A stretch of 64,000 bases of DNA from an uncultured bacterium (GCA_903831595.1 CAIKXY010000002.1:28339-92338), one strand, 5' to 3'. Shown: positions 40,661 to 64,000, numbered from the stretch's first letter. Made by a program: numbers and translations. The notes: generated by a model from the sequence alone, not told the origin.

Positions 40661-40666
40661 AATATA

Positions 40667-44822: not shown

Positions 44823-44832
44823 CAAATGACAG

Positions 44833-45060: not shown

Positions 45061-45074
45061 ATTTCACAACAATT

Positions 45075-45230: not shown

Positions 45231-45243
45231 AATCATTTATAAT

Positions 45244-45579: not shown

Positions 45580-45733
45580 TTTTTTAGTTAATTTATTAAT
45601 AATTTTATAAAAATTTGACCTTTTCTTCTACTTAAGCCGTTTCTCTCGTAAAAACATTACAAGTTGGTAGTTGTAATGTTTATCAACATGAAACGGCAGC
45701 ATACCAGGAATTTTTACTAATAATAAATAAAAT

Positions 45734-46102
45734 ATGAATTTAAAAAATCACACAAATATTGTAAGTAAGTTATTTTTAGCTGCTGCCATAATTATGCTCC
45801 TTAGTTACCCTGGATTTAAAATATTTTTACCACAATACCCAATTTTTATGATCGGAGCAATTACTCTATTGTCTGTCATGGCCGGACTTACCAATTTGAA
45901 GGGAAAATGGTTGGCACTTATCAATATCGTTATATCAATTATTGCAATAATCTATTTTGAAAGTCACGCGATTATGTTTGTGAGAGTCCCCAATCTCATA
46001 GGTATATTTCTCATAGACGAAATACTTACATTGATATTTGTTCTCGCACTTTACTTTAGTATCAAGACTTTTAGAATAAAATCACCAGAAATAAAAGTCT
46101 AG
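45734..46102 (+). CDS. Hypothetical polytopic membrane protein (122 aa)
   Basis: Four hydrophobic segments. Confidence 0.45.
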   Translation: MNLKNHTNIVSKLFLAAAIIMLLSYPGFKIFLPQYPIFMIGAITLLSVMAGLTNLKGKWLALINIVISIIAIIYFESHAIMFVRVPNLIGIFLIDEILTLIFVLALYFSIKTFRIKSPEIKV

Positions 46103-46104
46103 TT

Positions 46105-46620
46105 TTAAACATTGTTATATAAAGCTTTTAATTTTTCCAGCCCTCTATAAAGTTGTACTGCCATAGCGTTTTTTGATTGCCCAGTTATAAGTGACATTTC
46201 TTTAAGCGACAAATCTTGAATATACTTCATACGCATGATTTTCTGGTATTTTTCTGGAAGGCGTTGAATCAAAATAAGAGCAGCTTTTCCATCTAAAACA
46301 TTTAAAAGATTTTCAGGATGAATATCTTTTGGTTCATATCCTTTTTCAACTAAAACATCGAGTGATGTTGTTTTGTGTTTTCTATACTCATCTACAATAA
46401 GATTATTTAAAATATGATAAAGAAAAGCTCTCATGATATCTATCTTGCCACCTTTCGCAAGATAGCTCCAAGTTTTCATAAAAGTATTTTGTACCAAATC
46501 TTCTCCAAGCTCATGGTCATGAACTTTAAAAAATGCACGAGAATTAAGCCCCTTTTCAAAGTCGTGGTGAGCTACGGTGAGGATTTCTTGCCTATCCTTT
46601 TTTTGTTTTGGAGTCATCAT
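46105..46620 (-). CDS. ECF-type RNA polymerase sigma factor (sigma-70 regions 2 and 4)
   Basis: Region 2: LVQNTFMKTWSYL...FLYHILNNLIVDEYRK. Region 4 HTH: LPEKYQKIMRMKYIQDLSLKEMSLITGQSKNAMAVQLYRGLEKLK. The start is taken at MMTPKQ, so the exact position is uncertain. Confidence 0.6.
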   Translation of the reverse strand: MMTPKQKKDRQEILTVAHHDFEKGLNSRAFFKVHDHELGEDLVQNTFMKTWSYLAKGGKIDIMRAFLYHILNNLIVDEYRKHKTTSLDVLVEKGYEPKDIHPENLLNVLDGKAALILIQRLPEKYQKIMRMKYIQDLSLKEMSLITGQSKNAMAVQLYRGLEKLKALYNNV

Positions 46621-47021
46621 AATATTTTTTGACTTTTTATAACAATTGAGCTGACTGTATGAGTAGCATATTACACACCTATTACAAAGTTTTGTAATAG
46701 ATTCTAATATGTCCATATGATTGTGTACTTAGTTATATTCGAAGAGTGAGTTTTTATTACACGAACATTACAAAATGTTCGGTGCTTGAGAGTAAGTAAA
46801 ATAACCTACCTAGAATTATAGCACACAATACATCTATTAGTAAGTTGTAATGATTATGTAGTTTTGACGGCTTTATAAGTATAAACTCATTAGAAATGGG
46901 TTAAATAGCTTATAACAAGTCTTAGTAGTCTTTTTTGAGTGATTTTAAAAAGAATACTAGACGTAAAAATGTTTTTATTTATAAACAATCACTCAAATTA
47001 TTAGTTTTAATAAAAAAAAGT

Positions 47022-48284
47022 ATGAAAATATTTAATAAAAGTTTGATAACAATAATAAGTCTTGCATTTGGTCTATCTGGATCAATTACAGCATTTGCAG
47101 CAGGGCCAGCAGCCGTAAATCTTGGGTCAGCAGTAAATTTTGAAATTTTAGCAAAAACAGGAATCTCAACAACAGGAACTACTTTGGTCGTTGGTGATAT
47201 TGGAGTTAGTCCAGCCGAAGCAACTTATATTACTGGATTTGGTTTAATTCTTCCTGCGGCAGGTTCATATTCAACAACTCCATTGGTTGTTGGAAAAGTA
47301 TATGCACCAAGTTATGCAAATCCAACTCCTTCAAATATGTCTACAGCAGTTAGTAATATGGAGACAGCTTATACTGATGCAGCTGGAAGAACAAATCCAA
47401 CAACAACCGAGCTCGGTGCTGGAAATATTGGTGGAATGACACTTGCCCCAGGACTTTATAAGTGGGGAACTAGTTTGACAATACCTTCAAATGTTACTTT
47501 ATCAGGTAGTGCAAATGATGTTTGGATTTTTCAGATAGCTGGAAATCTAAATATTAGTTCAGATGTAAAGGTTATATTAAGTGGTGGTGCACAAGATAGT
47601 AATATTTTCTGGCAAGTTGCTGGACAAGCTACTCTTGAAACAACATCTGTTTTTCACGGAAATATATTAAGTCAAACGGCAATAGTATTAAATACTGGTG
47701 CAAAATTATATGGTAGAGCTTTGGCTCAGACTGCCGTTACTCTAGATTCAAACTCTGTAAATATTCCAGTTGTTGTTAAGACTCCTGCAACACCAGCAGT
47801 ACCAACAGTAAGCTCAGCAATTCCAGCTACTCCAGCGGTATCAGCTAATTCATCATCAAATAATAATAGTGGTGGAAGTGTTACTTATTCAAATTCATTA
47901 CTAACTTCACAGCAACAAAAACAATACGATCAACTTATTTCTACTGGTGTAAATTCAAGTAATGCATTAAAAGCAGTAAATCTTCTTTCAAATCCAGCTT
48001 CAATTTCTACGCTCTCAGCATCTGCTTTTGGTCAATTAGTTAAAATAATTTCAAAAAATCTTGCACAAGGTGGTCGCGGTGATGATATAAAAACCCTTCA
48101 ACAGTTTTTAATTTCTCAAGGTAAAGGTTCAGCAGCCCAAGCTTTATCAAAAATCGGCGCAACAACTTACTTTGGAGCTTTGACTCGTGCAGCGCTCGCT
48201 GAGTTTCAAGCAAATGTAGGAATTAATCCTGCTCTTGGAAATTTTGGTTCAATAACTCGAGCTTATCTAAGTTCGCATTATTAA
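47022..48284 (+). CDS. Secreted DUF3494 (ice-binding-like beta-helix) protein with a C-terminal peptidoglycan-binding (PG_binding_1-like) domain
   Basis: Signal peptide MKIFNKSLITIISLAFGLSGSITAFA. AVNLGSAVNFEILAKTGISTTGTTLVVGDIGVSPAEATYITGF matches the conserved DUF3494 start. C-terminal GGRGDDIKTLQQFLISQG...ALTRAALAEFQANVGI. Confidence 0.6.
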   Translation: MKIFNKSLITIISLAFGLSGSITAFAAGPAAVNLGSAVNFEILAKTGISTTGTTLVVGDIGVSPAEATYITGFGLILPAAGSYSTTPLVVGKVYAPSYANPTPSNMSTAVSNMETAYTDAAGRTNPTTTELGAGNIGGMTLAPGLYKWGTSLTIPSNVTLSGSANDVWIFQIAGNLNISSDVKVILSGGAQDSNIFWQVAGQATLETTSVFHGNILSQTAIVLNTGAKLYGRALAQTAVTLDSNSVNIPVVVKTPATPAVPTVSSAIPATPAVSANSSSNNNSGGSVTYSNSLLTSQQQKQYDQLISTGVNSSNALKAVNLLSNPASISTLSASAFGQLVKIISKNLAQGGRGDDIKTLQQFLISQGKGSAAQALSKIGATTYFGALTRAALAEFQANVGINPALGNFGSITRAYLSSHY

Positions 48285-48303
48285 TTTATTAATTAAAAAA
48301 TAT

Positions 48304-50601
48304 ATGAAAAATTTTGGTAAAAATTTAATATCAACAGTAATCATTTCTCTATCATTTGCTATTATTGGGCCGATTTCTGCATTTGCGGTAACGACACCAA
48401 ACCTTGGAGCCGCAACTACTTATGGTATTCTTGGTGGTACTTATACAAATACAACAGTTGGAGGAACCACGATTACTAACGGAGACGTCGGATATACTAC
48501 TCCGCCGGCGGCAGTACCTACTATGGTTGGAGGTACGATTTATGGAAATGTTCCACCCACTCCTGCTGCAAGAACAGACGCAACCGCAGCTTTGACTACC
48601 TTAAATGCGATGACATGTCCGCCAGCTAATAATTTAGGTACTACAGTTGATTTATCATTAGTACACAGTGCTTCATATACACCAGGTGTTTATTGTAGTA
48701 CTGGTGCCATGTCTATAGGAACTGCAGGAATTACTCTTAATGGTGCAGGAACTTATGTTTTTAGAGCCGATGGAACTTTTGGTACAGTTGTAGATTCTGT
48801 TGTTACGCTGGCAGGTGGTGCGTCTGCTTGCGATGTCTTTTGGACACCAACAGGAGCAACTACACTTGCTGCTAACACAACACCAGCAACGACATTTTAT
48901 GGAACTATAATTGATAATAATAATTTTATTACCGTTGGTATAAATGTTGGGTGGCTAGGAAGAGCACTTTCATTACTTGCGGGAACAGTTACGACAGACA
49001 CTGATTCAATTACTGTCCCATCTGGATGTACGTCCGATGTTACTCCACCAGTGATTACTTTGGTCGGGACTTCTCCAATTACAAAAGAATTTGGTTCAAC
49101 TTATACAGATGTCGGAGCTACAGCGGCAGATAACATTGACGGAAATATTACAGCAAATATCGTAACCGTTAACCCAGTCAACACTTCAATTCTTGGTGCG
49201 TATACAGTTACTTATAACGTTTCAGATTTAGCAGGAAATCCTGCTACTCAAGTTACAAGAACGGTTAATGTTATTGATACCGCGATACCAGTAATTACAA
49301 GGCTAGGTTTAAACCCAGTCTCAATAGTAATCGGTACAGTATATACAGATGCTGGAGCTACAGCGGCAGATAATGTTGATGGAAATATTACCCCAAGTAT
49401 TATAACTGTTAATCCAGTAAATAAAGATGTTGTAGGCACTTACACAGTTACTTACAACGTTACTGATTCATCAGGAAATCATGCAGCTCAAGTTATAAGA
49501 ACGGTTAAGGTGATCGCTGCTATTGATAATGTACCACCAGTTATTACAGTTGTGGGTTCAAGCACAGTGTCATTGACAGCCAGTACTGCATATACAGATG
49601 CTGGAGCAACAGCGTTAGATGATGTTGATGGAGATATCACAACTAACATTGTTACTGTTAATCCAGTAAATATTAATTTAATTGGAACTTACACAATCAC
49701 TTACGACGTTGTTGATTCATCTGGGAACCATGCTATTCAAAAAATAAGAACAGTTAATGTTGTTGGTGTTGCACACAAAAGACCAACTTCTACGACAGCG
49801 CCAATTGTACCAATAATCGGTATATTAAAAGTACCTTCACCACTTAATTTACCGCAAGGAGCTGGAAAAGTCCTATATAATTATTCAGTTTGGAATGTTG
49901 CAAAATTACAACAATTAATTGACGTCACGGTTGTTGATGATAAATGCAATCCTGTAGTTTTAGTTTCCGGTGACGCAAATAATAATGGAAAACTTGATAT
50001 TGATGAAACTTGGAAATATACTTGTACTTCAACACTTGCAAACACTACTACAAATACTGCGATAGCAACTGCTCATAGTAGTGATGGTTATTACAATACA
50101 GCAATAGCAACTGCAATTACTACAGTTGTTGTCGGTGCACCGATACAACCACCACTTATTCATGTAATAAAAGTTCCTAGTCAATTGACCCCATTCCCAT
50201 TTGGAGGTGGTGAGGTTACCTACACATACACCATAACAAATCCTGGTTTAGTTTCATTAAACAACGTTGTTGTTACTGATGATAAATGTCCCACAGTTTC
50301 CTATGTTTCTGGTGATGCAAATAATAATAATTTGCTTGATGTAGGTGAGTCATGGATTTATGCTTGCAAACAAAATATTAAAGTTTCAACTGGAAATGTT
50401 GCTACAGCTACAGGTAAAGCAAATGGTTTAACTGCTGTAGCTTATGCTTTTGTAAATGTTCTTGTCTCTTCTCCATCTCTCCCAGATACAGGATTGATTC
50501 CTGAGTTAAATAATACCTCATGGATTATTGCTACTCTTGCTGGTGTAATTATTATTCTTTCAATCTCACTCACTGTAGTTTTAAAGAAAAAGAAAGTTTA
50601 G
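48304..50601 (+). CDS. LPXTG-anchored surface protein. It has a DUF3494-like N-terminal domain, three tandem DUF5011-like Ig repeats, two DUF11-like repeat domains, and a sortase sorting signal.
   Basis: Signal peptide. PNLGAATTYGILGGTYTNTTVGGTTITNGDVG. Three copies of about 80 aa, P(P)VIT.VG...YTD.GATA.D..DG.IT..IVTVNPVN...G.YT(V/I)TY.V.D..GN.A. A C-terminal LPDTG, then hydrophobic WIIATLAGVIIILSISLTVVL, then KKKKV. Confidence 0.65.
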   Translation: MKNFGKNLISTVIISLSFAIIGPISAFAVTTPNLGAATTYGILGGTYTNTTVGGTTITNGDVGYTTPPAAVPTMVGGTIYGNVPPTPAARTDATAALTTLNAMTCPPANNLGTTVDLSLVHSASYTPGVYCSTGAMSIGTAGITLNGAGTYVFRADGTFGTVVDSVVTLAGGASACDVFWTPTGATTLAANTTPATTFYGTIIDNNNFITVGINVGWLGRALSLLAGTVTTDTDSITVPSGCTSDVTPPVITLVGTSPITKEFGSTYTDVGATAADNIDGNITANIVTVNPVNTSILGAYTVTYNVSDLAGNPATQVTRTVNVIDTAIPVITRLGLNPVSIVIGTVYTDAGATAADNVDGNITPSIITVNPVNKDVVGTYTVTYNVTDSSGNHAAQVIRTVKVIAAIDNVPPVITVVGSSTVSLTASTAYTDAGATALDDVDGDITTNIVTVNPVNINLIGTYTITYDVVDSSGNHAIQKIRTVNVVGVAHKRPTSTTAPIVPIIGILKVPSPLNLPQGAGKVLYNYSVWNVAKLQQLIDVTVVDDKCNPVVLVSGDANNNGKLDIDETWKYTCTSTLANTTTNTAIATAHSSDGYYNTAIATAITTVVVGAPIQPPLIHVIKVPSQLTPFPFGGGEVTYTYTITNPGLVSLNNVVVTDDKCPTVSYVSGDANNNNLLDVGESWIYACKQNIKVSTGNVATATGKANGLTAVAYAFVNVLVSSPSLPDTGLIPELNNTSWIIATLAGVIIILSISLTVVLKKKKV

Positions 50602-50725
50602 TTTAAGTTCTATTATTAAAATTAATTAACCCGCTAAAGTTTTGACTGATGTAAAATCAAAGATTTTACGGGCATTAAACAAAAAGTTTAATGCGTCAGT
50701 CAAAATTTTCTCGGGTAAAAAAAAT

Positions 50726-50866
50726 ATGCTTACAACAATCGCATTTGTGCTTATAGTTTTGTGGCTCGTTGGATTTATTGCTTTTCCTGTGATAGGAGGA
50801 TTTATTCATATTCTTCTTGTGATTGCTGTTATTACAATTCTAATAAGGGTTATCAGAGGTAAATAA
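50726..50866 (+). CDS. lmo0937-family small membrane protein (46 aa)
   Basis: MLTTIAFVLIVLWLVGFIAFPVIGGFIHILLVIAVITILIRVIRGK matches the conserved pattern of this small-protein family. Confidence 0.4.
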   Translation: MLTTIAFVLIVLWLVGFIAFPVIGGFIHILLVIAVITILIRVIRGK

Positions 50867-50893
50867 ATCTAAAAATAATTTATAATCAAAAAA

Positions 50894-51559
50894 ATGGGAT
50901 TAAAAATTTCATCAAAAATATTTCTGCTTATTATTATTTTTGTAATAGTTTCATTTTTTGTGATTTTGCTTTTCTTTCCAACATCAAATGTTCAAAACCA
51001 AATTTCTTACGCAGAATCAATACCAATTCCATCTGTTGTTGTGCAAACTTTAAAAAATATTGTTAGCACCACTTCCAAAGTGCAAACAAATTTATCCGCA
51101 GTAGGACAGGTAGGAATAGGACTTCCGATCAGTTTAAAAATTCCCAAAATTAATGTTGATGCCACGTTTGAATACAAGGGACTTACATCTGGTGGAGCAA
51201 TGGATGTGCCAAAAGGCCCTGATAACGTCGCATGGTTTAGTCTAGGAACACTTCCTGGTAATATAGGTTCTGCTGTTGTGGCAGGGCATTATGGTTGGAA
51301 AGACGGCATACCAGCAGTGTTTGATGATTTACACACCTTACAAAAAGGAGACAAAATATATGTTGAGAATGATATGGGAAAGACAATAACTTTCGTTGTG
51401 AAAGAAATCGGAATATATGGCGAAAATAGCGATGCTTCAAATGTATTTGGTTCAAATGATGGAAAAGCACACCTAAATCTGATTACTTGTGAAGGAATTT
51501 GGGATGCATATAAAAAAAGTTACTCAAACCGTACAGTCGTATTTACTGATATGGAATAG
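50894..51559 (+). CDS. Sortase (transpeptidase) with an N-terminal membrane anchor
   Basis: TM helix. LKIPKINVDATFEYKG...VVAGHYG...LHTLQKGDKIYVE...NLITCEG, the catalytic TLxTC motif with its His and Arg context. Confidence 0.65.
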   Translation: MGLKISSKIFLLIIIFVIVSFFVILLFFPTSNVQNQISYAESIPIPSVVVQTLKNIVSTTSKVQTNLSAVGQVGIGLPISLKIPKINVDATFEYKGLTSGGAMDVPKGPDNVAWFSLGTLPGNIGSAVVAGHYGWKDGIPAVFDDLHTLQKGDKIYVENDMGKTITFVVKEIGIYGENSDASNVFGSNDGKAHLNLITCEGIWDAYKKSYSNRTVVFTDME

Positions 51560-51622
51560 AAAAATATCAAGCAAAATATAAACAATTTGTAATAATATGA
51601 GTTCTCTAACGTCTTAATAAAT

Positions 51623-52177
51623 ATGAAAACCCCCACAAAAAAGATAGATTTCGTTGAAAATTTTTTAGGAGAAAGTTGGACATATATAAAAACTGTAGTG
51701 GATGTTATGCGGGAACCAATTTTGATTCTTGATAAAGATTTAAGAGTAATGGCGGCCAACGAATCTTTTTATAGAGTGTTCCAAGTTGAACAAAAAGACA
51801 CCGAAAAGAAAGTTGTATATGAGCTTGGAGATGGTCAGTGGAATATTCCTGCATTAAGAAAACTTCTTGAAGATATTTTACCTAAAAACACATTTTTTAA
51901 AGGATTTGAAGTTATTCACGAGTTTCCATTTATAGGAAAAAAAGTGATGATTTTAAATGCACGACAAATTCATTTTAAAGAAGAATCTGTTTCAAAATTA
52001 TTTCCATCAATTATACTTTTAGCAATGGAGGATATTACCGACATGATGGTTGTTGCTGAAACACTTGCTGGTCATGCAAATCATTTAGAAACAAGATTTA
52101 CAGAAAGAACACAAAAGTTGAGTACCGATATTGTAAAATTAGAAAAAGAAATTATTCAACTAAAAAAGAAAGTATAA
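51623..52177 (+). CDS. PAS-domain protein with a C-terminal coiled-coil
   Basis: VMREPILILDKDLRVMAANESFYRVF...ELGDGQWNIPALRKLLEDIL is a PAS fold. No output domain. Confidence 0.5.
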   Translation: MKTPTKKIDFVENFLGESWTYIKTVVDVMREPILILDKDLRVMAANESFYRVFQVEQKDTEKKVVYELGDGQWNIPALRKLLEDILPKNTFFKGFEVIHEFPFIGKKVMILNARQIHFKEESVSKLFPSIILLAMEDITDMMVVAETLAGHANHLETRFTERTQKLSTDIVKLEKEIIQLKKKV

Positions 52178-52263
52178 ATTTACATACTCCGAAAAATCAC
52201 TGTTTAAGCCGCAGTGGTTTTTTATTTGTTTTTCCCATTTTTTCGTGTATATTACATATGTTT

Positions 52264-55106: not shown

Positions 55107-55646
55107 ATGTCTCAAACAAAAAGGGGTGATGATGGGAAGACAAATCTCTATGGTTGCGACCAAAGAATTTCAAAAAGCTCGGCTATTACCGAGGCACTTG
55201 GGTGTTTGGATGAGATAAATTCTTATCTTGGTGTTGTAAAGGCAAATCTAAAAAAAGAAATATTAGGGAAAGAGGAAATTTCTGGCATTATTCATGGTAT
55301 TCAAAATGATTTGTTTATTGTTCAAGCACAAGTGGCCGGTGCGGACAAAAAAATAAGTGAAAATAATGTTAAATATATTGAGGATATTATTTCAGAAATT
55401 GAGAAAAAATTACCCCCGATAAAATCTTTTCTTGTTTCTGGTGCAAATAATATTTCTGCATATTTTGATTTTGCGCGAACACTTGCAAGAAGAGCAGAAA
55501 GAAGAGTCGTTGCTGTGAGCGAGGAGGGAATAGCAAAAATCGACCCCAAAACCCTTGTTTTTTTAAACCGTCTATCGAGTCTTTTGTATGTGTTCGCAAG
55601 ATACTTTGCCTTAAAAAATGGAGATGAGGTAGCTCCAAAGTATTAA
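55107..55646 (+). CDS. ATP:cob(I)alamin adenosyltransferase, PduO-type (MMAB family)
   Basis: TKRGDDGKTNLYGCDQRISKSSAITEALGCLDEINSYLGV and IQNDLFIVQAQVA match the PduO-type N-terminal signature. Confidence 0.65.
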   Translation: MSQTKRGDDGKTNLYGCDQRISKSSAITEALGCLDEINSYLGVVKANLKKEILGKEEISGIIHGIQNDLFIVQAQVAGADKKISENNVKYIEDIISEIEKKLPPIKSFLVSGANNISAYFDFARTLARRAERRVVAVSEEGIAKIDPKTLVFLNRLSSLLYVFARYFALKNGDEVAPKY

Positions 55647-55680
55647 ACCTAGATTTAATCGTAAAAATCTGTTATAAATA

Positions 55681-55806
55681 GTTTGTTTGATGGTGGCTAC
55701 GGTGAGAGGTAGCAGTTATGCTTGTTATTAGACAGTTTGTTTGATGTTCATTTGTATTTGATGGTGACTACGGTAGGAGGTAGCAGTTATGCTTGTTATG
55801 AGACAG
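55681..55806 (+). repeat. Two tandem degenerate copies of the 5' part of tRNA-His with its upstream leader
   Basis: Copy 1, about 55681-55736: GTTTGTTTGATGGTGGCTACGGTGAGAGGTAGCAGTTATGCTTGTTATTAGACAG. Copy 2, about 55751-55806: TTTGATGGTGACTACGGTAGGAGGTAGCAGTTATGCTTGTTATGAGACAG. The genuine leader plus 5' half is TTTGATGGTGGCTATGGTGTAGCGGTAGCA. Confidence 0.45.
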
Positions 55807-55835
55807 CTGTTTTGAGGTTCGTTATGTTGTTTGAT

Positions 55836-55907
55836 GGTGGCTATGGTGTAGCGGTAGCACAGAAGCCTGTGGAGCTTTTAGTTCGGGTTCAACTCCCGAT
55901 AGCCACC
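55836..55907 (+). tRNA. tRNA-His (anticodon GTG) with an encoded G-1
   Basis: The extra 5' G pairs with discriminator C. Acceptor GTGGCTA/TAGCCAC. Anticodon stem GAAGC/GCTTT with loop CTGTGGA. T-arm TCGGG-TTCAACT-CCCGA. The D-stem is short (3 bp). Confidence 0.6.
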
Positions 55908-56144
55908 CAATTGACAGCAGTCAGAAAGTGTGACCTGATTGCGTCGTGTTCGCGAATTTTCGTTCTAGACTCGTACGGTTCAAATCGTGAAAGGGACCCA
56001 AGAGTCAGCGATTGGTTTTCAGACCGGTACGCGTCAGTTTTATAGAATTTTGGTTCTAGACCAATACAGTTAAAAAACTATGAAAATAAAAAACTGGCGT
56101 AGGTTAGTGACGTCAGTTTTTCAATGTTATAACTTTGTTATATT

Positions 56145-56507
56145 TTATCTACCTAAACATTCAGGGAGATAAAGTAAGTTATCTCTTTTTGTTTCATCTG
56201 CAATCGTTTTGACATACCTTGTTCCCTCGTGTATCGCTACCATAAGTCGTGCTCGAGTTAGTCCTGATGAAACGTATGCTTCTCCTCCTTTGATTACGAA
56301 GTCATACATTTGCAATCTAGTACTCCAACCGACTTGTCCTGTGATATCATTTGTCCAACCAAGACCTCTAATTGCCTTATGTGGATTCTGATGATACCCA
56401 GCGTCTTTATTGATACATGTAATTTTAATAGCCATTTTTGTATTGTGTGTGTTTGTATCCCGATACTTGTTAATATTCAGCCTTTTAGTTATTATACTAA
56501 GGGTCAT
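56145..56507 (-). CDS. DUF3892-family protein
   Basis: MAIKITCINKDAGYHQNPHKAIRGLGW...YDFVIKGGEAYV...GTRYVKTIADETKRDNLLYLPEC matches the DUF3892 pattern that is common in mobile-element contexts. Confidence 0.5.
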   Translation of the reverse strand: MTLSIITKRLNINKYRDTNTHNTKMAIKITCINKDAGYHQNPHKAIRGLGWTNDITGQVGWSTRLQMYDFVIKGGEAYVSSGLTRARLMVAIHEGTRYVKTIADETKRDNLLYLPECLGR

Positions 56508-56665
56508 TCAATCGAGTTCTAACCAAATCCCAATCATAGACTCTCATCAGCGTAGTATCAGATTCTTGTCGATGAGACCTAACAAAAATAGGAAGTCGTT
56601 TCTTTCGCGAGCAACATCTTCCGCATTTTCGTGCTTACCACGGTTTTCACCATGTTATATCTATA

Positions 56666-56713
56666 TTATCAAATTGATAAACGCTTGTCAAATCATTTTG
56701 ATAAGTGTATAAT
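56666..56713 (+). promoter_or_regulatory. Operator palindrome TTATCAA-A-TTGATAA followed by the promoter TTGTCA, 17-nt spacer, TATAAT. It drives a leaderless XRE transcript.
   Basis: The 7-nt arms form a perfect inverted repeat at 56666-56680. The -10 box ends 6 nt before ATG 56720. Confidence 0.45.
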
Positions 56714-56719
56714 GCCAGT

Positions 56720-57061
56720 ATGAAAAATGAAGAAAATAAAGGGTCATCTATAGGTTCTCGAATTAGAAGTGCTCGTGAGGAAATGGGTTATTCACAACTT
56801 GATCTAGCTAAGAAGCTGGATTTTGAGTCTGCAACAGCAATCTCACTCATTGAGAGCGGGGAACGTAATATTACTATCAATAATCTAGAAAAAATTGCTG
56901 GCATCCTCCATCGAAGTGTTAATTATTTTCTAGGGAAGCCAGAAAAAGATAATGTTACAGTTGAATATGCTCTTCGTGCTGATAAACATCTTTCTCCAGA
57001 TGCAAAAAAGGCTATTCTCCAATTCATAGAATTAGCAAAAAATAACAAGAATGGAAAATGA
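56720..57061 (+). CDS. XRE-family helix-turn-helix transcriptional regulator
   Basis: IGSRIRSAREEMGYSQLDLAKKLDFESATAISLIESGERNITINNLEKIAGIL is an HTH_3 domain. Confidence 0.7.
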   Translation: MKNEENKGSSIGSRIRSAREEMGYSQLDLAKKLDFESATAISLIESGERNITINNLEKIAGILHRSVNYFLGKPEKDNVTVEYALRADKHLSPDAKKAILQFIELAKNNKNGK

Positions 57062-57551
57062 TCCTATTAATCTTGGCCCACGAAAAACGGCAGCAAAAAA
57101 TCTTGCTAAGAAGCTTATTAAAGACACAAAAATAAGCGAAGCTCCAGTTTCTCTTCAAACGATTATTGAACATTTACAGTCTACGTACACTATTTCTGTA
57201 CAGAGAGTTAATTTTCCAACAGAGGTATCCGGTTTGCTTGTTAAGTGTAAAGAAGTTGATGGGGAATATTACACGATTGGTTTTAACGAAAACCACCCAT
57301 GGTGTCGTCGTCGATTTACCATAGCTCATGAAATCGGGCATCTACTTTTCGGTCATGTTTGCAAAAAGGGGCAAAAAGATGAGACGGATGACGAAAAAGA
57401 AGCGGATGCTTTTGCCGGAGAATTATTAATTCCTACAATATTAATAAAAAAAGATTTTGGAAAAATTAAGAAAGTTCCAGAACTTTCAAAATTATATCGT
57501 GTTAGTGCAGAGGCTCTCACTATAAAATTAATGGATGCACGTTTATTGTAA
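57051..57551 (+). CDS. ImmA/IrrE-family zinc metallopeptidase (COG2856)
   Basis: HEIGHLLFGH zinc-binding motif. Overlaps the XRE stop by 11 nt, the canonical XRE-ImmA pairing. Confidence 0.7.
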   Translation: MENDPINLGPRKTAAKNLAKKLIKDTKISEAPVSLQTIIEHLQSTYTISVQRVNFPTEVSGLLVKCKEVDGEYYTIGFNENHPWCRRRFTIAHEIGHLLFGHVCKKGQKDETDDEKEADAFAGELLIPTILIKKDFGKIKKVPELSKLYRVSAEALTIKLMDARLL

Positions 57552-57553
57552 TT

Positions 57554-58894
57554 CTAGTTTTGTAGAATAATTTTTCTGTCATCTAACACGATTTTATTCT
57601 TTAATTGTTCGAGTAACTCCCGTTTCTCATAAATCGTTCCTTCTCTAAGTATATATTTAGCATATGCTCGTATATCAACTTCTTTTTCTTTTATTTTTTT
57701 ATCATCTTTTATTCCAAATACGTTTGAACGTAGTTTGTTATGTTTTTCGATCTCTCTATCAATGATATGTCTTGCACCAATCTGATTGATATCAAGTTTG
57801 TCGATAATTTCTTCAAGCTGAGTTATTAAATTATCTTCTCTGATATATGGATTTTTGCAAAACATATCATTATGCCTTGTACAACTGTAGTAAATGTATG
57901 AATGCACACTCCCATCGCTAATATTTTTATGTTTTTCCTGTGCTGTTATTCCTGATCCACATTTTCCGCAAGTCATTAGTTTAGTAAATGTAAACTCATG
58001 ATAAAGTTTTTTACTCTTACTTCGTTCTTCTGCCATATTTTCTTGTACACGCTGGAAAAGTTCTTTGGTTATAATCGGCTGATGTTTCCCCTCGTACCAG
58101 TTACCGCTTCCACGCGGATATTCGAATGTTCCAGTGTAGAAAGAGTTTTTTAATAGGTTGTATATTGTACTTAAGTTTAGATTTTTATTATTTTTCGTTT
58201 TGAATTTCATATCATCTCTCAGCCAATGATATAATTTTCGTCCACTCCATCTTTCATATGCAACTTTTTCAAATACTTGTTTTATGATTGGAGCTCTAAT
58301 CGGATCTACTATTACATAGCACTCTCTACCGATAATTTTCTCATTCGTATATCCTACCGAAGCCACTGATGGCCACAATCCCATCTCTGCCCGTGCTTTG
58401 AGTCCACGTTTTACATTTACGCTCTTGTTGTCATTCTCAAGCTTCGCCTGTGAGCCAAGAATCATCAACAAGAACTTTTCATTAGGGGAGTCAGTGAACT
58501 TTTGACTGTAGGTTCTTATCTCAACTAATTTCTTTTGATCAATAAGATCGACTATCATTCCAAGATCCCCACCATTTCTTGAAAGTCTGTCTGGTGCCCA
58601 CGTCAATATTCCATTAAACATTCCTTTTCGGATGTCCTCAAGAAGTTGTACGAAAACCGGTCTTGAACCACTAGCTTTCGCCGAATGACTCTCTTTACGA
58701 ATTTCAGTTATGTTTAAACCATCTCGTTGGGCAAGCTCTAGCATCTCCTTGATTTGAGAATCAATTGATAACGCTTGCAATTCATCCGCCTCACTGCTCT
58801 TACGTGCGTATAGGCAGTATTTGATTGTCACATCCGCCTTTTGTTCTCCACGAGCCACTTGTGCCCCTGAAAACCCTTGTTTCGCCTGTTGCAT
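57554..58894 (-). CDS. Large serine recombinase (resolvase/invertase N-terminal domain, recombinase domain and zinc-ribbon)
   Basis: N-terminal YARKSSEADELQALSIDSQ with the catalytic Ser, DRLSRN, a recombinase domain, and the Cys cluster CGKCGSGITAQ...YYSCTRHNDMFCKN. Confidence 0.8.
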   Translation of the reverse strand: MQQAKQGFSGAQVARGEQKADVTIKYCLYARKSSEADELQALSIDSQIKEMLELAQRDGLNITEIRKESHSAKASGSRPVFVQLLEDIRKGMFNGILTWAPDRLSRNGGDLGMIVDLIDQKKLVEIRTYSQKFTDSPNEKFLLMILGSQAKLENDNKSVNVKRGLKARAEMGLWPSVASVGYTNEKIIGRECYVIVDPIRAPIIKQVFEKVAYERWSGRKLYHWLRDDMKFKTKNNKNLNLSTIYNLLKNSFYTGTFEYPRGSGNWYEGKHQPIITKELFQRVQENMAEERSKSKKLYHEFTFTKLMTCGKCGSGITAQEKHKNISDGSVHSYIYYSCTRHNDMFCKNPYIREDNLITQLEEIIDKLDINQIGARHIIDREIEKHNKLRSNVFGIKDDKKIKEKEVDIRAYAKYILREGTIYEKRELLEQLKNKIVLDDRKIILQN

Positions 58895-59021
58895 ATTTAT
58901 TATTCTTTAATATCTTTTAAATTCGACTACATACATCAATGACGCAACCCTTTCGTGGAGTCCAGAGAGGGTAAGTTGGTAAGAAGTAGATAACTAGCGA
59001 GCTCTTTATTTTTCTTCAATT

Positions 59022-60227
59022 TTGTTGTACTTTTATGTAATAATATCAATTATGGATTTTCAACAATATTTTCAATCGAAAAATCTCACAAAAACCCCAA
59101 TGGAGGGTGTTCATTATGAGCAAAAAATTACACCAGATTTATTGTGGTGTGTTGCTTATGTCGTCTCAGATCTTATCAAGGATGATCCCGAAAAGATATT
59201 TACTGATAGTGATGTGAGAGAATCTCCAATTTTTAATTCATTAACACAGGATTATTTTTCGAAGGCACCCCAAGAAAATGCCGAAAATGAATATAATAAA
59301 TTCAGCTCATATCAACTCGGTGTTTTGTCTTTTGCTGGTATCTTTGAACAAATTTCAGGCCGCCCTAAAAAATATAGAGTAAACAATTTAGAAGCTTTAA
59401 AATATATTGCAATAAATGATTTTAATGCCGCAAGATTTTTAGGGGAATATACAGAAAAATTTATTCTTGATAATGGTCTTAATGGTATTTTTGAAATTTA
59501 TCATCAAAATCCAAATCAGGATAATTATCTGCGTGTAAAAGAAGCTTATTGGAATTGGGCAAAAATAAATACAGCAATAAAAGGTACTGATAGAAAACAC
59601 ACTTATCGTGTCTTCAATAAAATGTTTAATGTTTTTTGTTACAAGAATCATTTACCAGGGGAGGATGGTTCAAATATAATAAATGGTCCATGTCCATATT
59701 CCTTTTTACTATATAATCGAACAAATTTTAGAGATGTAGATATGCCCTCTGGTATGACAAGACAGCAATATCAGGAAGAAGTACTTTCAGAAGTCGAGCA
59801 AGGGGGTTTGGTTGAAACTCTATTACAAAAAGTTAAGGAGGCTGTAAAAATAAAAAGTGGTAATAGTAGTGAAATTAAAGATATTGACTGGGGATATGCT
59901 CCCAATGATGGTGGTATTCATGTTCATCACATACTTCCTCGTCATTCATATCCTCAATTCTCAATTGCAAAAGAAAATTTAATAGCTTTAACTCCCGGTC
60001 AGCACCTTTCGTATGCTCACGTAGAAGCAAATACTAGAACAATAAATCATGAGTTCCAAATTATTTGTTTAAAGAGAAAATTTGAAGCTGTAAGGGCATC
60101 TTTAGAAGCAGGAGATGGCTTCTATGACTTAAAACAATTTATAAGAATGTTCAATACTTGTTTTAACTGGACTATCAGTGAAAATTCTTCTGTCGATCAA
60201 GTTGGTTCAGCACTTGCAACTGTTTAG
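59022..60227 (+). CDS. HNH-motif nuclease, a putative Type II restriction endonuclease partner of the adjacent methyltransferase
   Basis: C-terminal GGIHVHHILPRHSYPQF...ENLIALTPGQHLSYAH is an HNH. It is convergent with and adjacent to the methyltransferase gene. Confidence 0.5.
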   Translation: MLYFYVIISIMDFQQYFQSKNLTKTPMEGVHYEQKITPDLLWCVAYVVSDLIKDDPEKIFTDSDVRESPIFNSLTQDYFSKAPQENAENEYNKFSSYQLGVLSFAGIFEQISGRPKKYRVNNLEALKYIAINDFNAARFLGEYTEKFILDNGLNGIFEIYHQNPNQDNYLRVKEAYWNWAKINTAIKGTDRKHTYRVFNKMFNVFCYKNHLPGEDGSNIINGPCPYSFLLYNRTNFRDVDMPSGMTRQQYQEEVLSEVEQGGLVETLLQKVKEAVKIKSGNSSEIKDIDWGYAPNDGGIHVHHILPRHSYPQFSIAKENLIALTPGQHLSYAHVEANTRTINHEFQIICLKRKFEAVRASLEAGDGFYDLKQFIRMFNTCFNWTISENSSVDQVGSALATV

Positions 60228-60229
60228 TC

Positions 60230-62749
60230 TTATCTTTTAACTCCAAAAAAGAATACAGAATTGTTATCAATATTGAGAGATCGAGTACCATGATTTCTTG
60301 CTACTCTATAAAACTCAGTAAATTCTTCCGTACCAAAGTAATCTAAATCATTTTTTGTTATTTTTGCTTCATTTTCTTTTAGGGTAAGGATAGCCACTGA
60401 TCCATCAACAAGTGTATTCTCTGGCAGAAATGAGGCTCGTGGGGCGTATGTTAGATTTGGCACTAAAACACTATTTTCTTTATTCCAAAATTTCGAAATA
60501 GATAAACCGTCCAGTGAATCAACGTAAGAATCATAATTGGGAATATTTAATATTTCGTTCCGTCCAATATTTCTTGATTTTAATATTCTTATCCTACCTT
60601 CATTTTTTGTTATTTTCTTGGTAATTTGACGATCCCTGTATGAAATAAAAATATTAAATCGAAGTTTTTTTGCTATAGAATCAAAAAAGGCATTTCTATA
60701 TACTAACCAATAAGGAAAATCTTTTGAACATATATAAGATTGATCTTTATACTCAATTATATTTTTAACATAAGACTCCACCAGTGTTCGTGTGCCTTTG
60801 TTTTGAGTATTAATAATTAAACTTATCGTCTCAATTTTTACACCCTTGAATCCCTTTTCTCCGTAATCTGTAATTTTTTCAATAGCAAAAGATGAAACAA
60901 GTTCTCTTGTCTTGTTAAATTCTGGCGCTGAAAGAAAACTTTTAGGAATAATAAGACCAACAGTATTTCCCAATTGGATTGTTTTTTCAAGGAAAAAAGA
61001 AAAAAGATTATTTGTTTCTGTATTATATTTATTTTTTTTATATAGATTTAATAATTCTTTATTTTCAGATATGTCTCCGAATGGAGGGTTACCGATAATA
61101 ATGTCATATCGTTTTGATTGATTGAATAAGTTTGTTTCTCCATATAGTAAAAAGTCAGCATTAATCAAGTTGATGATAATATTTTTAGGAATGTTTAGTT
61201 TTTTCAGTAAGAGTTTTAATATTTCAATCGCATTTTTATCAATATCAATCACATCGATATGAACTTCTTTAACTGTTTTATATTTTTCGATAAGAAGAGG
61301 AAGAAAATTTCCAGCCCCAACGGATGGTTCTAATATCGAAAGCTTTTCGAATTTAGATGTGTCGGGTAAATCTTTCACAATGGTAAAACAAATATCTTGT
61401 CTTGTGTAATATGCCGCGTGTTGAAGACGTTGGGCGTTTGCAAGCTCAACAATTTTTACTAGTTCAGGATAAGTCAAATCATTTATATTTTTTTTAATAA
61501 AATTTTTTAGATTTTCCTCAATATCAAGTCTCTTATCTACAATAAGTTTTTTTATTTGGGTTTCGTTTTTATTATTATTTTTTAGTTTTAAATTTATATT
61601 TTTAGCAATACCTTTAAATATAACTGTTGGTACAGCTTCACCAAGAGACTGTCTAATATTTATCTCTTCTTTTTTAAGAATTTTTCTTTTTTCTTCAACC
61701 GATAATTTATTTAATATATTGAGTGGTGTTGATACCCAATTAAAAGAATCTGGTACTGACATCATTCGCATCAATTCTCTTATACTGAAAACTCTATTAT
61801 CCTTTGGGTGAACTGTGGCTTGGCTTGCCAAAATATCATTTCTTGTGTGAACACATGGTGCAACCTTATCCCAATAACAACGTGAATATTTATCTGCATT
61901 CTTGTTTTCATTACAAACAATTTTTCCATTTATAATCTGATGTGGTCGTCTTTTTGGATCAATGTTATCGAAAGCTGACTGTCCCTCTTTGATGTTCTCA
62001 ATCCAAGGAAGCATATGTTCCCCATATGATCTAAAATTATGATAAATATCTTTCTTATCAATTTTTCCCATTATTTTAAGAGAAGTAAGATCGCCAATTG
62101 CATCACGTAATGTACCTCCATTTTTTAAATTAGGCATAAGGTCAAGAGGTGTAACTTCCTGTATGTCTTTTCTTACCCCAATAACTAGTGTTCGTGTTCT
62201 ACTTGATGGATTTCCATAATCTTTAAAATTTATTATTTGATAGTGGATATTATATTTTCCGCCAAGGTTCAATTCAATTGCTTCTCGAATTTTTTTCTGT
62301 TTTTTGTCGGTATCAGTGCAAAGACTAGAAAGAAATGCTCTAACATTCTCAAAAATAAATACTTTTGGTCTAATTTGATCTACAAGTTTAATTGATTCTA
62401 CGACAAGAGAATTTCTGGCAAGCTCGTCTCCTTTTTTGTGATTAGCAACAGACATACCCTGACAAGGTGGAGTTGCTAGTAAGACATCAATTTCTTTAAT
62501 TCCTTTTTTTGATTTCCATAAATCGATTTCTGAGAATATTTTTTCTTTTGCAGATTTTTTTGTAATATCATCCGCTATATAGCCACTTGGATATAAACAT
62601 TTATTATTATGTTTTTGGACATCTAAACGTCTATTAATCAATTCAATAGTTGCGACACAATCAAAATTTTCCTGAGAAAATCCGTAACATCCAACACCTG
62701 CACTACTGAATAAACTAATGTATGTTAATTTTTTCTCGTTGCTTTTCAT
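60230..62749 (-). CDS. Fused DNA methyltransferase. The N-terminal half is a C5-cytosine MTase and the C-terminal half an N6-adenine MTase.
   Basis: C5 motifs: I LFSSAGVG, IV PPCQGMSVAN, VI FIFENVRAF. N6A motifs: ILEPSVGAGNF (motif I) and IIGNPPFG (motif IV). 839 aa. Confidence 0.75.
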   Translation of the reverse strand: MKSNEKKLTYISLFSSAGVGCYGFSQENFDCVATIELINRRLDVQKHNNKCLYPSGYIADDITKKSAKEKIFSEIDLWKSKKGIKEIDVLLATPPCQGMSVANHKKGDELARNSLVVESIKLVDQIRPKVFIFENVRAFLSSLCTDTDKKQKKIREAIELNLGGKYNIHYQIINFKDYGNPSSRTRTLVIGVRKDIQEVTPLDLMPNLKNGGTLRDAIGDLTSLKIMGKIDKKDIYHNFRSYGEHMLPWIENIKEGQSAFDNIDPKRRPHQIINGKIVCNENKNADKYSRCYWDKVAPCVHTRNDILASQATVHPKDNRVFSIRELMRMMSVPDSFNWVSTPLNILNKLSVEEKRKILKKEEINIRQSLGEAVPTVIFKGIAKNINLKLKNNNKNETQIKKLIVDKRLDIEENLKNFIKKNINDLTYPELVKIVELANAQRLQHAAYYTRQDICFTIVKDLPDTSKFEKLSILEPSVGAGNFLPLLIEKYKTVKEVHIDVIDIDKNAIEILKLLLKKLNIPKNIIINLINADFLLYGETNLFNQSKRYDIIIGNPPFGDISENKELLNLYKKNKYNTETNNLFSFFLEKTIQLGNTVGLIIPKSFLSAPEFNKTRELVSSFAIEKITDYGEKGFKGVKIETISLIINTQNKGTRTLVESYVKNIIEYKDQSYICSKDFPYWLVYRNAFFDSIAKKLRFNIFISYRDRQITKKITKNEGRIRILKSRNIGRNEILNIPNYDSYVDSLDGLSISKFWNKENSVLVPNLTYAPRASFLPENTLVDGSVAILTLKENEAKITKNDLDYFGTEEFTEFYRVARNHGTRSLNIDNNSVFFFGVKR

Positions 62750-63124
62750 TTGTTACATTATAACTTTTATATTTTTTCTTGGGAAGGCCTAAAACAATAA
62801 TGACTGAATATAGTTAATTGGTCTAGTGGCATTGTTGGTAACTTTGCTTCGCAAACTCTCTAATCTAAGCTAGGGTATGGAGTAATACCTAATTTTTTGG
62901 TATTATGTTATTTACAATTAAATAAAAGACGACCTAACCCCTTTAGAAATAGAGGATATGGTTGCAAAACCCGCTAGAGAACAAAGGACTCCTCGTCAGA
63001 GTCACTCTAGCGGGTCATATTGGGAAACTGATATGGGTGAGGCTGAAAGGTTTCATCGCGATGGCGGGGAGCTCTTTGTTTATATAAAGACTCACCTCTA
63101 TCGATTAAAACCCGCTAGAGTTTT

Positions 63125-63769
63125 ATGAATGATCAAAACCAGTCTTTCGAGATTAAGACTAAAAAACAAGTCTCAAATATCAATCTATTATTAAGCTGGG
63201 CATTTGGAATATTTTTTATTTTGTGCGGAATAGGACTTATATTTACAAGCATTGTATCGGGAATTATTTTTATTGTTGGTGGCTTAATATTACTACCTAC
63301 AATAGCTGAAAAAATAGAAAAAACTTATAAAGTTTCTTTTTCTAGAAATATGAAAGTATCTATTGTATTTTTAGTGATTATATTATCTGCAGTGTTATCA
63401 TCAATAACTGATAAAAAAGATGACTCGCCTTCTCTATCTAAGGTCCAAGAAGTAAAAACAGAAACAATTAATAATCAAAATTCTATATCTAAAGAAAGTG
63501 CTCAAAAAGATTTAGATGAAATAATTTCATTAGGTAAAAAAGCAGGACTGATAGTTTCTTACGAGTTTTCAGATAAAGCTACTGTAGTATATATTGGAAG
63601 TACATGGTATACACAAACTGTAGCATTCAAAAAAGATTTTATGGCTAAAATCGCATCACTAAAAAAAGTCATAACTGGATATAATCATTTTGAAGCCAGA
63701 GACGCTTATTCAAATGAAAAAGTAGCTGAAGTGACAGCTTTCTCAAATTCTATAGAGGTATATAAATAA
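63125..63769 (+). CDS. Hypothetical membrane protein (214 aa)
   Basis: Two TM helices (WAFGIFFILCGIGLIFTSIVSGIIFIVGGLILL) and a third (VSIVFLVIILSAVLSSI), then a soluble C-terminal domain. Confidence 0.45.
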   Translation: MNDQNQSFEIKTKKQVSNINLLLSWAFGIFFILCGIGLIFTSIVSGIIFIVGGLILLPTIAEKIEKTYKVSFSRNMKVSIVFLVIILSAVLSSITDKKDDSPSLSKVQEVKTETINNQNSISKESAQKDLDEIISLGKKAGLIVSYEFSDKATVVYIGSTWYTQTVAFKKDFMAKIASLKKVITGYNHFEARDAYSNEKVAEVTAFSNSIEVYK

Positions 63770-63772: not shown

Positions 63773-64000
63773 ATGGGAAAACGATTAAACATAATAAAAC
63801 TTTCTTCCTTAGTACTGATATTATTTTTTATTGTTTGGATATTTTCTAACATAGATACAAAAGTTGAAATTCAAAACGAGGAAATAACCGCGTCCTCTAA
63901 TGTAACGATATCTACTACAACAGATAAAAATGTTCAGCAAGATTTAGTGTCTGTCATTTCTGTTGTAGACGGAGATACAATAAAAGTTTTAATTGAAGGA
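63773..64000 (+). CDS. Thermonuclease (SNase-like) family protein, N-terminal part; continues beyond the window
   Basis: Signal/TM segment, then VISVVDGDTIKVLIEG, the SNase N-terminal signature. Confidence 0.45.
   Translation, partial: MGKRLNIIKLSSLVLILFFIVWIFSNIDTKVEIQNEEITASSNVTISTTTDKNVQQDLVSVISVVDGDTIKVLIEG

Follow-up and report, generated by a model that had tools for sequence, protein, structure and literature searches.

A probable large serine recombinase island beside a tRNA-His gene of a Patescibacteria chromosome, with restriction-modification cargo and a LOOT RNA

Conceptually, the closest described systems to the locus studied here are the tycheposons, the phage-inducible chromosomal island (PICI)-like satellites and the satellites with defence hot spots. 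Tycheposons and PICI-like satellites adjoin tRNA genes, can occur as more than one module per contig, and combine a site-specific integrase and terS or other packaging genes with the lack of a full virion module and with variable adaptive or defence cargo. Defence hot spots have been described in P4-type satellites as well. Tyrosine recombinases are used by 910 of 937 tycheposons (10.1101/2020.12.28.424599). Among serine recombinases, CcrB of SCCmec, XisF and the A118/phiC31-type integrases have the same domains as the recombinase described here, a serine in a Y-x-R-x-S motif and a gene located at the edge of the inserted block. Mageeney et al. (PMC7192596) analyzed 2168 genomes, found serine integrases at tRNA or tmRNA genes in 14 of 297 cases and were aware of no earlier report. 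Our own literature search found nothing on serine recombinases in Patescibacteria. We have analyzed a stretch of 64,000 nucleotides (nt) from an uncultured bacterium (GCA_903831595.1, CAIKXY010000002.1:28339-92338), hereafter the window, where a block directly 3' of a tRNA-His gene carries a large serine recombinase (LSR). The original prediction, made from the sequence alone, had placed an integrated element there between positions 55908 and 63124. Our analysis indicates that 55909-63124 is probably the tRNA-proximal half of an island of ~11-14.5 kb, and that this island, or its ancestor, was probably placed 3' of tRNA-His in a Patescibacteria chromosome by an LSR. Each of its parts belongs to a known kind. 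Noteworthy are the family-level tRNA association of a clade of serine integrases and, for the LOOT RNA found in the island, a first genomic context, additional structure and a possible cis target.

The comparison with other genomes reveals a sharp break of synteny at the tRNA. Relatives were located by searching species-representative genomes with the neighbouring cobalamin adenosyltransferase (CobAT). We compared a close relative (L005, CobAT protein 95% identical) and a complete chromosome of 682 kb (L006, 66%). In both, the upstream order is the same as in the window, i.e., pseudouridine synthase, L19, tRNA-Leu, adenosyltransferase and tRNA-His. The blastn matches of both genomes to the window end at 55908, the last base of tRNA-His, and the sequence that follows in them had no match, protein level included, to the window or to the 7.4 kb beyond it. 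The two relatives have other genes in common 3' of their tRNA-His, and neither has an LSR at this position. Thus, there is a presence/absence polymorphism with a sharp edge at a conserved host gene, and the LSR-bearing island with restriction-modification (R-M) cargo that had been predicted beside tRNA-His is backed by these genomes. The coordinates of all the features are collected in Table 1.

Table 1. Features of the island within the window, with the evidence for each of them.
Feature	Position	Strand	Evidence or sequence	Remarks
tRNA-His(GTG)	55837..55908	+	ARAGORN; Rfam tRNA 63 bits	host-side junction of island
End unit U1	55910..56000	+	arm ATTGACAGCAGTCA...GTGACC	core TTCGTTCTAGAC at 55959-55970
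End unit U2	56001..56090	+	arm GAGTCAGCG...AGACCGG	core TTGGTTCTAGAC at 56050-56061
DUF3892 gene	56145..56507	-	Pfam PF13031 E 3e-8	120 amino acids (aa); 96 aa in public gene calls
Divergent control region	56663..56713	.	two promoter-like sites, palindrome, half-site	
XRE-family helix-turn-helix (HTH) repressor, CapH-like	56720..57061	+	Pfam HTH_3 E 6e-13; PADLOC capH E 2e-13	
ImmA/IrrE-type M78 metallopeptidase, CapP-like	57051..57551	+	Peptidase_M78 E 4e-16; PADLOC capP E 2e-23	
LSR, 446 aa	57554..58894	-	Resolvase, Recombinase and Zn_ribbon_recom domains	convergent with tRNA-His
Type II restriction endonuclease, 401 aa	59022..60227	+	PADLOC REase_II PDLC03488 E 2e-46	public gene calls start at 59052
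Fused m5C and m6A Type II DNA methyltransferase, 839 aa	60230..62749	-	Pfam DNA_methylase E 7e-41, Eco57I E 5e-16	
LOOT RNA	62931..63085	+	Rfam RF03000 covers 62931-63054	3' extension with tail and U-rich run
Second AAAACCCGCTAGAG copy (5' strand of stem P3)	63107..63120	+		ends 4 nt before ATG 63125; can pair with P3 3' strand
214-aa membrane protein, first gene past LOOT	63125..63769	+		74%-identical homologue after LOOT in L052
Membrane-anchored SNase-type nuclease, 274 aa, start only	63773..64000	+		runs off the window

The recombinase itself has the complete set of integrase-type domains, a catalytic resolvase domain with its serine (PF00239, E 8e-24, aa 28-173), a recombinase domain (PF07508, E 1e-16) and a zinc ribbon (PF13408, E 3e-9). 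The serine of the YARKSS motif (S33), proposed before as the catalytic residue, was invariant in an alignment of 22 LSR sequences. The homologue search retrieved more than 8000 database proteins at E below 1e-20, and the few that carry a name come from Minisyncoccota, Paceibacterota, Patescibacteria and one Caldisericia. The top NCBIfam matches were CcrB (E 8e-32) and XisF (E 5e-25), both well under the cutoffs. Compared with known LSRs, the present clade is found beside genes for tRNAs (His, Gln, Trp, Ser, Glu, Asp and others) that are convergent with it in every case, and the gene is the last one of a methyltransferase-terminase operon instead of part of a lysogeny module. Three relatives, at 71-81% identity, also adjoin a convergent tRNA-His, namely L019 (81%, at 1.3 kb from the tRNA), L046 (81%, ~0.13 kb) and L020 (71%, 5.3 kb). 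The housekeeping proteins flanking L020 are just 49-62% identical to those of the window, and the host flank of L019 is a different one. These data bear on the alternative of a vertically inherited, fast-evolving defence locus beside tRNA-His, in which the recombinase would act locally by inversion or cassette shuffling. Serine recombinases of defence islands can act as invertases (PMC12529663), the cargo differs even between LSRs that are 81-88% identical, and neither a compositional signal nor an attR or an empty site was found. However, the close relative L005 (95%) and L006 are devoid of LSR at tRNA-His, the LSR of L020 is better conserved than its housekeeping flanks, L019 has a different host flank, the LSR clades follow the tRNA species, and none of the domains of an integrase-type LSR is missing from the protein. 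A vertically inherited locus appears to us quite improbable.

Under the preferred reading of an inserted island, the LSR would have integrated it at or just past the 3' end of tRNA-His. A unit of ~90 nt directly 3' of the tRNA is common to the four occupied His loci (the window, L019, L046 and L020). It consists of an arm, GTCA...N10-12...GACC, followed 27 nt further by the core (T/C)(G/C)GTTCTAGAC. Units of this kind are conserved in related islands, and the window has two of them in tandem (U1 and U2, 91-nt units). U1 is closest to the unit adjoining tRNA-His in L020 and U2 to the single unit of L019. Besides, the 3' part of U1 (55976-56001) is a 19/26 copy of the 3' end of tRNA-His, the top match outside the tRNA-His gene over 71 kb (19 versus a background of 17 at most). 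The tandem units with their copy of the tRNA end may be the relic of an earlier integration. The sequence GTTCTAGAC had been reported twice in the left noncoding arm; it is indeed there twice, although at 55962 and 56053 rather than at about 55968 and 56070, and the repeats are meaningful because they form the core of the end units common to the occupied His loci. Among the first 20 fetched loci, TTGGTTCTAGAC was found solely adjoining tRNA-His. The motif (G)AGACCGA in the element-side arm, ~22-30 nt from the tRNA end, is common to the His, Trp and Asp types. L006 has no end unit. In L005, whose site has no LSR, just a decayed core-like stretch is retained (TTTTTCGGTTCTACCCGAGTA, ~10798-10820, ~48 nt past tRNA-His), which could be an attB-like sequence or the relic of a lost island.

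The surroundings of tRNA-His have some other particularities. Just 5' of the gene there are two 71-nt tandem repeats (55686-55752 and 55757-55823), each opening with a copy of the 9 nt that precede the tRNA and a degenerate tRNA 5' half (GGTGGCTACGGTG.GGTAGCA). They are also present in the assemblies L001 and L002, and the stretch could not be aligned with L005 or L006. Several Rfam matches were taken as chance, specifically PreQ1 (56044-56087) and snoRNA-like hits, all sub-threshold, and a fluoride aptamer at 55611-55706 (23.3 bits against a threshold of 34). When viral contigs were searched with the His-type end unit as an exact pattern, one locus came up (L021), considered a chance match too.

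To the right, the island could be followed past the window on a 9.9-kb contig from another assembly (L003), which overlaps the window from 61508, extends 7.4 kb past its end, and is identical to it over the first 200 nt of the contig and in the overlapping proteins. After the gene of the 214-aa protein come the SNase-type nuclease, an HTH protein similar to the small terminase subunit (TerS-like; PHROG 4044, E 5e-9), a protein with ParB_N and N6/N4 methyltransferase domains, and a small zinc-ribbon open reading frame (ORF). Then follow a LexA-like S24 repressor (TIGR00498, 141.8 bits, above cutoff), three small ORFs, a 351-aa protein and murC. The end that had been predicted at 63124 is hence not a boundary, since the island continues through the TerS-like, ParB-methyltransferase and LexA-like genes. 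The murC gene is found ~6.5 kb past the window (window-equivalent 70497) and, as it is a housekeeping gene, the island must end before that point. Its length is therefore at least 10.6 kb, counted through the ParB-methyltransferase, and at most 14.6 kb. The spacer of 307 nt that precedes murC contains, at window-equivalent 70217, a diverged core (GGTTCAAGACC / TAATTTGGTTCAAGACCGTAGTTTAACC) that we regard as a candidate right end (70210-70245, or L003 8703-8738). The 351-aa protein (L003 7627-8682, window-equivalent 69134-70189) is rich in CxxC motifs, has at least 486 homologues and had no Pfam (precomputed), PHROG, NCBIfam or PADLOC match; its family recurs near the LSR cores of L015, L017, L079, L108, L110 and L139.

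The original prediction had also pointed to ACCCGCTAGAG, present twice in direct and once in inverted orientation near 63124, as possible attR or recombinase-binding sites. The repeats do exist, and the LSR and R-M genes are all inside 55908-63124, as would be expected for a self-contained element of 7.2 kb with its right end at these repeats. However, two of the copies belong to the third stem (P3) of a LOOT RNA, ACCCGCTAGAG at 62969 forming its 5' strand and the inverted copy at 63005 its 3' strand. The remaining copy is at the start site of the next gene, 53 nt beyond the Rfam-modelled end of the full-length LOOT match. Because they are inside or adjoining this match and co-vary as RNA helices, these repeats are not att sites. 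Moreover, the core genes of the family (TerS-like and ParB-methyltransferase) are located further right, and in relatives LOOT is found in the interior of the islands, up to several kb from any tRNA. Such a 7.2-kb element is, in our opinion, extremely improbable.

We have surveyed the family with scripted searches (tRNA search, nhmmer and tblastn) over 99 further LSR loci, 30 obtained from a metagenome scan with the LSR and 69 from a scan of IMG/VR viral contigs with the LSR alignment. The order ParB_N-methyltransferase, often a second methyltransferase, TerS, large terminase subunit (TerL) and LSR was recurrent, TerL matching PHROG 38 with E 3e-76 in L017 and E 2e-46 in L072. When the count was restricted to the 88 LSR copies followed by 250 nt of sequence or more, a tRNA was found downstream in 27, in all cases convergent, and its type was the same as that of the nearest LSR neighbour in 21 of the 27. 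Seven of these tRNAs were within 300 nt of the LSR; L120 (125 nt) would add one more, its contig falling just short of the length cut-off. The compact cases were of the Trp, Gln, Asp, Glu and Ser types. Cargo varied at three places, upstream of the core, between TerL and LSR, and between LSR and tRNA, and included Type I and Type III R-M systems, reverse transcriptase, GmrSD, Fic, an AEP-TOTE conflict-system protein, a Dcm/Z1/HATPase set and nucleases. The positions around the core would thus be cargo hot spots. In the window TerL is absent, and its usual place is taken by two cassettes, the R-M pair and, in the opposite direction, the LOOT cassette with its membrane protein and secreted or anchored SNase. 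The space between LSR and tRNA holds the three-gene module XRE, ImmA and DUF3892. The loci L093, L094, L103 and L107 resemble the window, with LOOT divergent from the LSR and TerL absent or partial. We also looked for a conserved regulator preceding the ParB-methyltransferase operon, but no family dominated, S24 and XRE types appearing in a few loci each, and for this reason the idea of an SOS induction is held loosely.

Two side observations concern individual members. The closest LSR relative (L045, 88%) encodes downstream of the LSR (4167-4805) a 212-aa membrane protein of PHROG 23442, with no tRNA in the 825 nt available; having another gene where the window has XRE/ImmA/DUF3892, it indicates that cargo turns over even between near-identical recombinases. 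Six IMG/VR contigs (L108 with L085 on IMGVR_UViG_3300014205_009253, and five others) have two family LSRs each. In those examined in detail a full core of ParB-methyltransferase, TerS and TerL precedes each LSR, and in L108 just 3 nt separate the stop codon of the first LSR from the gene that follows, there being no tRNA between the two modules.

The terminase genes raise the question of a phage. One explanation is a temperate prophage, intact or recently decayed, in which the LSR would be the integrase, TerS and TerL the packaging enzymes, and the structural genes would be in another part of the element. Both terminase subunits are hallmarks of phages, 69 of the relatives come from IMG/VR viral contigs, LexA/CI-like repressors and ParB-methyltransferases are common in temperate phages, and the several ORFs without annotation leave room for very divergent structural proteins. 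However, murC caps the window island at 14.6 kb at most, and no capsid, portal or tail gene was found in it, nor in any flank examined, which reached up to 10 kb (L072, L077, L104, L110 and L118) and included the complete 16.7-kb interval between the two cores of L108 and L085. With TerL also absent from the window copy, a prophage is unlikely. A phage satellite of the PICI or tycheposon kind, having integrase, repressor and its own terminase, packed in helper capsids and carrying defence cargo, agrees better with a TerS, TerL and integrase core of 11-17 kb that is tRNA-adjacent and has no structural genes. Also consistent with it are the double modules of the six IMG/VR contigs and the defence cargo in fixed hot spots, and PICI-like tycheposons with terS, a few of them using LSRs, have been described (10.1101/2020.12.28.424599). 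Judged by its genes, the window island has an integrase, a LexA-like repressor and TerS, and no replication gene was recognised in it. Against a satellite speak also the lack of a known helper phage and of signs of excision or packaging, and the loss of TerL from the window copy. We consider satellite behaviour a possibility to be held tentatively. With respect to tycheposons and PICI, the islands described here differ in using an LSR, in a core made of both terminase subunits and the ParB-methyltransferase, in having no recognised primase or replicase, in the Patescibacteria host and in the LOOT RNA that heads a cargo cassette; satellite behaviour is putative in their case.

Several observations weigh against an LSR-placed island. 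An empty tRNA-His site of the same species was not recovered, and the three other assemblies have the same occupied locus. The murC gene found 3' of the island is not what follows tRNA-His in L005 or L006, which makes a rearrangement a possible alternative. The composition is the same as that of the flanks. The GC content of the element is 0.3333 and that of the window 0.3332, and when flank windows of equal size were taken, 47% had a GC at least as high and 41% a tetranucleotide usage at least as distant. A coding GC above the AT-rich background had been suggested, and this fails; the lack of any compositional difference had been named as an outcome that would speak against the element, and this is indeed what we found, the island being nonetheless backed by the synteny evidence. 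A second att site was not found either, as ungapped inverted and direct scans of the window, L003 and relatives with the tRNA-side arms and the tRNA-His 3' end gave background only. The search for an att core had thus a mixed outcome, with a tRNA-side arm conserved in the four His loci and, at the right, nothing above background except one gapped candidate. That candidate, at 70217, aligns with the left cores only if gaps are allowed, and there are two unrelated copies of the degenerate 10-mer in 71 kb. Besides, for 61 of the 88 family members the available sequence contains no tRNA, and a single LSR integration does not account for the tandem U1 and U2. Finally, the LSR of the window copy looks intact, but the island has no TerL and a recombination directionality factor could not be recognised in it, so that this copy may be immobile.

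The LOOT RNA of the window matches the Rfam model over its full length (positions 1-121) with 73.5 bits, against a gathering score of 46.4, and three of the four modelled hairpins are capped by GAAA tetraloops. P3 is formed by 62969-62979 paired with 63005-63015. We have detected an extra long-range helix, absent from the Rfam model, in which the tail GGCGGGGAG (63063-63071), ~10 nt past the last hairpin and followed by the U-rich run (63072-63085), pairs with CTCCTCGTC (62989-62997) in the apical part of P3. In an alignment of 14 sequences, 93.7% of the cells of this helix were paired and six of the nine pairs were compensatory, equalling the best local helix. The folding z-score was -5.1. 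LOOT was found at or above the gathering score in 26 further loci of the island family (27 with the window), Patescibacteria-type and IMG/VR contigs among them. It is always transcribed away from the core operon and located just upstream of the LSR or of the ParB-methyltransferase. On the same strand, an ORF starts 20-57 nt past the end of the extended LOOT, usually 20-40 nt. In the window the distance is 39 nt, or 70 nt from the end of the Rfam model. The exceptions are one locus with an overlap of 5 nt and one without ORF in the sequence examined. The ORF is often a PD-(D/E)xK, NucS-like or VRR-NUC nuclease, or a membrane protein. In the window the 214-aa protein had no confident family match in Pfam, PHROG, NCBIfam or PADLOC, and the next gene is a nuclease (Pfam SNase in the L003 gene call, PHROG nuclease E 1e-31, PADLOC SNc+LTD E 8e-48). 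A conserved ACAAtTtAATA (62912-62925 and equivalents in L015, L017 and L020) precedes the first LOOT base by ~10 nt; it is probably a -10 region, which would put LOOT at the 5' end of the transcript. A sequence-pattern scan of viral contigs for LOOT gave 23 matches, and just two of them (L039 and L037) were true LOOT according to nhmmer and Rfam.

The position of the P3 copies suggests how this RNA might work. In the window AAAACCCGCTAGAG is found at 62966 and 63107 and its inverse at 63005. In L072, L052, L055, L039 and L037 the sequence of P3 is different, and again a matching copy is found 1-5 nt before the downstream ATG; L039 has an additional one past the ATG. The longest start-site copies have 16 nt (L052) and 12 nt (L039), with p values from ~0 to 0.08 when the tail was shuffled. 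Altogether, 6 of the 14 LOOT loci examined have a start-site copy and the other eight do not. As the 3' strand of P3 can pair with either partner, the LOOT fold and the sequestration of the start region would be mutually exclusive. From this layout we infer either a translational switch or a small RNA (sRNA) with a cis-encoded target. Action in cis, rather than as a trans sRNA, is suggested by the fixed position upstream of an ORF and by the start-site copy, which co-varies in the 6 of 14 loci that have it. LOOT would then control the membrane-protein and nuclease cassette, and a sensed signal (ligand, protein or phage product) would choose between the LOOT fold and the sequestered start site. 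A broader proposal, with LOOT as a cis RNA switch that gates nuclease and membrane cargo in abundant, undescribed tRNA-targeting LSR islands of Patescibacteria behaving as satellites with their own terminase, is rather doubtful as a whole and is put forward as speculation. Rfam classifies RF03000 as a stand-alone sRNA gene, whereas here it is upstream of a same-strand ORF within one island family. Compared with the model, it is extended by a long-range helix and a U-rich tail, and a subgroup of the loci also has the copy of P3 at the start site. We found its genomic context discussed nowhere in the literature beyond the paper describing it. The islands provide this RNA with a host lineage and with neighbouring genes. 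To our knowledge, LOOT had before been known solely from metagenomic fragments without an assigned organism.

Between the end units and the LSR, the minus-strand DUF3892 gene and the XRE gene overlapping ImmA/IrrE were found as predicted, as was the tRNA-His(GTG) gene itself; the overlap is of 11 nt. The intergenic control region contains a rightward promoter, TTGTCA-17-TATAAT at 56685-56713, which scores 11/12 and is the best consensus match of the region. It is overlapped by a second promoter-like site, TTGACA-17-TAATAT (56691 to 56663), which runs leftward and points to DUF3892. Between the divergent sites is the palindrome TTATCAAATTGATAA (56666-56680), and there is an extra half-site, TTGATAA, at 56698-56704. 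The prediction of a promoter and palindrome before a leaderless repressor gene stands in that both are present and that the XRE ATG (56720) is 6 nt past TATAAT, the mRNA being probably leaderless. It does not stand as evidence for an operator, since a palindrome of this quality appears in 6% of spacer shuffles and 58 times in the window and by itself proves nothing; we have dropped this argument. Promoter-like sites are not enriched overall, with 26 found and 32 expected.

In its arrangement the module is similar to CapH/CapP, ImmR/ImmA and DdrO/IrrE, all with overlapping genes for an HTH repressor and an M78 peptidase facing a small gene and with a palindrome in the promoter region. The adjacent HTH and M78 genes, the overlapping divergent promoter-like sites and the palindrome make it look more like a regulator of the CapH/CapP type, acting on the divergent DUF3892 gene, than like the master switch of the element. 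By analogy with CapH/CapP and ImmR/ImmA, the pair would keep the DUF3892 promoter repressed, with release once the repressor has been removed by the peptidase. There are differences too. The gene faced here is DUF3892, which is not among the recognised defence effectors, and both cleavage and DNA-damage sensing are putative in the present case. ICEBs1 has the arrangement immR-immA-int, unlike the window, where XRE/ImmA are not in operon with the recombinase. Relatives of XRE/ImmA in other islands face different genes. Those of L089 (7664-8809, 56-60% identical) face a homologue of an 89-aa ORF, and those of L108 (492-2367, 38-46%) face the ParB-methyltransferase operon and have a 351-aa family gene downstream.

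On the other side of the LSR, R-M cargo had been thought probable and is well supported by the two adjacent genes, which are convergent with stop codons 2 nt apart. The methyltransferase has the C5 and the Eco57I/N6 domains that had been recognised in it and matches PADLOC MTase_II PDLC03277 over its full length (E 5e-230). In the endonuclease, the PDLC03488 match spans aa 29-386, and no Pfam or NCBIfam match was obtained. It had been called an HNH nuclease. The restriction enzyme is confirmed by that match, but the HNH assignment depends on a weak PHROG match (E 4e-4, aa 298-330) and on a C-terminal HNH-like motif, HVHHILP...N...H, and is plausible. The Alw26I/Eco31I/Esp3I enzymes are natural m6A/m5C fusions, and R.Eco31I has an HNH active site. 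The window pair comes closest to this kind, having m5C and m6A domains in one polypeptide beside an endonuclease with an HNH-like motif, but its methyltransferase is far under the cutoff of that Type IIS family (TIGR02987, the m6A model of NCBIfam, E 1e-17, 63.8 bits versus 353.5), and its domains have the order C5, then N6. The R-M pair would protect the host and stabilise the island. Inside the methyltransferase gene, at ~61507, two independent assemblies break (L001 ends and L003 starts), and the break point is a low-complexity linker between the C5 and N6 domains.

Elsewhere in the window there are other regions of variation. Between tRNA-Arg(tct) and tRNA-Val(tac), ~7.4 kb (44824-52263) code for an ECF sigma factor, Ice_binding/Ig-like surface proteins and a sortase, and no integrase was seen among the genes; in L006 just 35 nt separate this pair of tRNAs, and in L005 0.6 kb. 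This is a second variable region adjoining a tRNA. Another ~4.6 kb (~36100-40690) have no counterpart in the otherwise collinear L005.

Serine integrases are the workhorses of genome engineering and have been thought to avoid tRNA genes. A large natural clade of LSRs whose members follow particular tRNA species would yield many new attB/attP pairs and could serve to test how the choice of site evolves. In the case of LOOT, the host lineage, the neighbours, the extra helix and a likely cis target make an orphan motif testable at the bench. The genomes of Patescibacteria are tiny and few mobile elements have been described in them, and a common island with a fixed core and swappable restriction and defence cassettes would explain how defence genes are exchanged among them.

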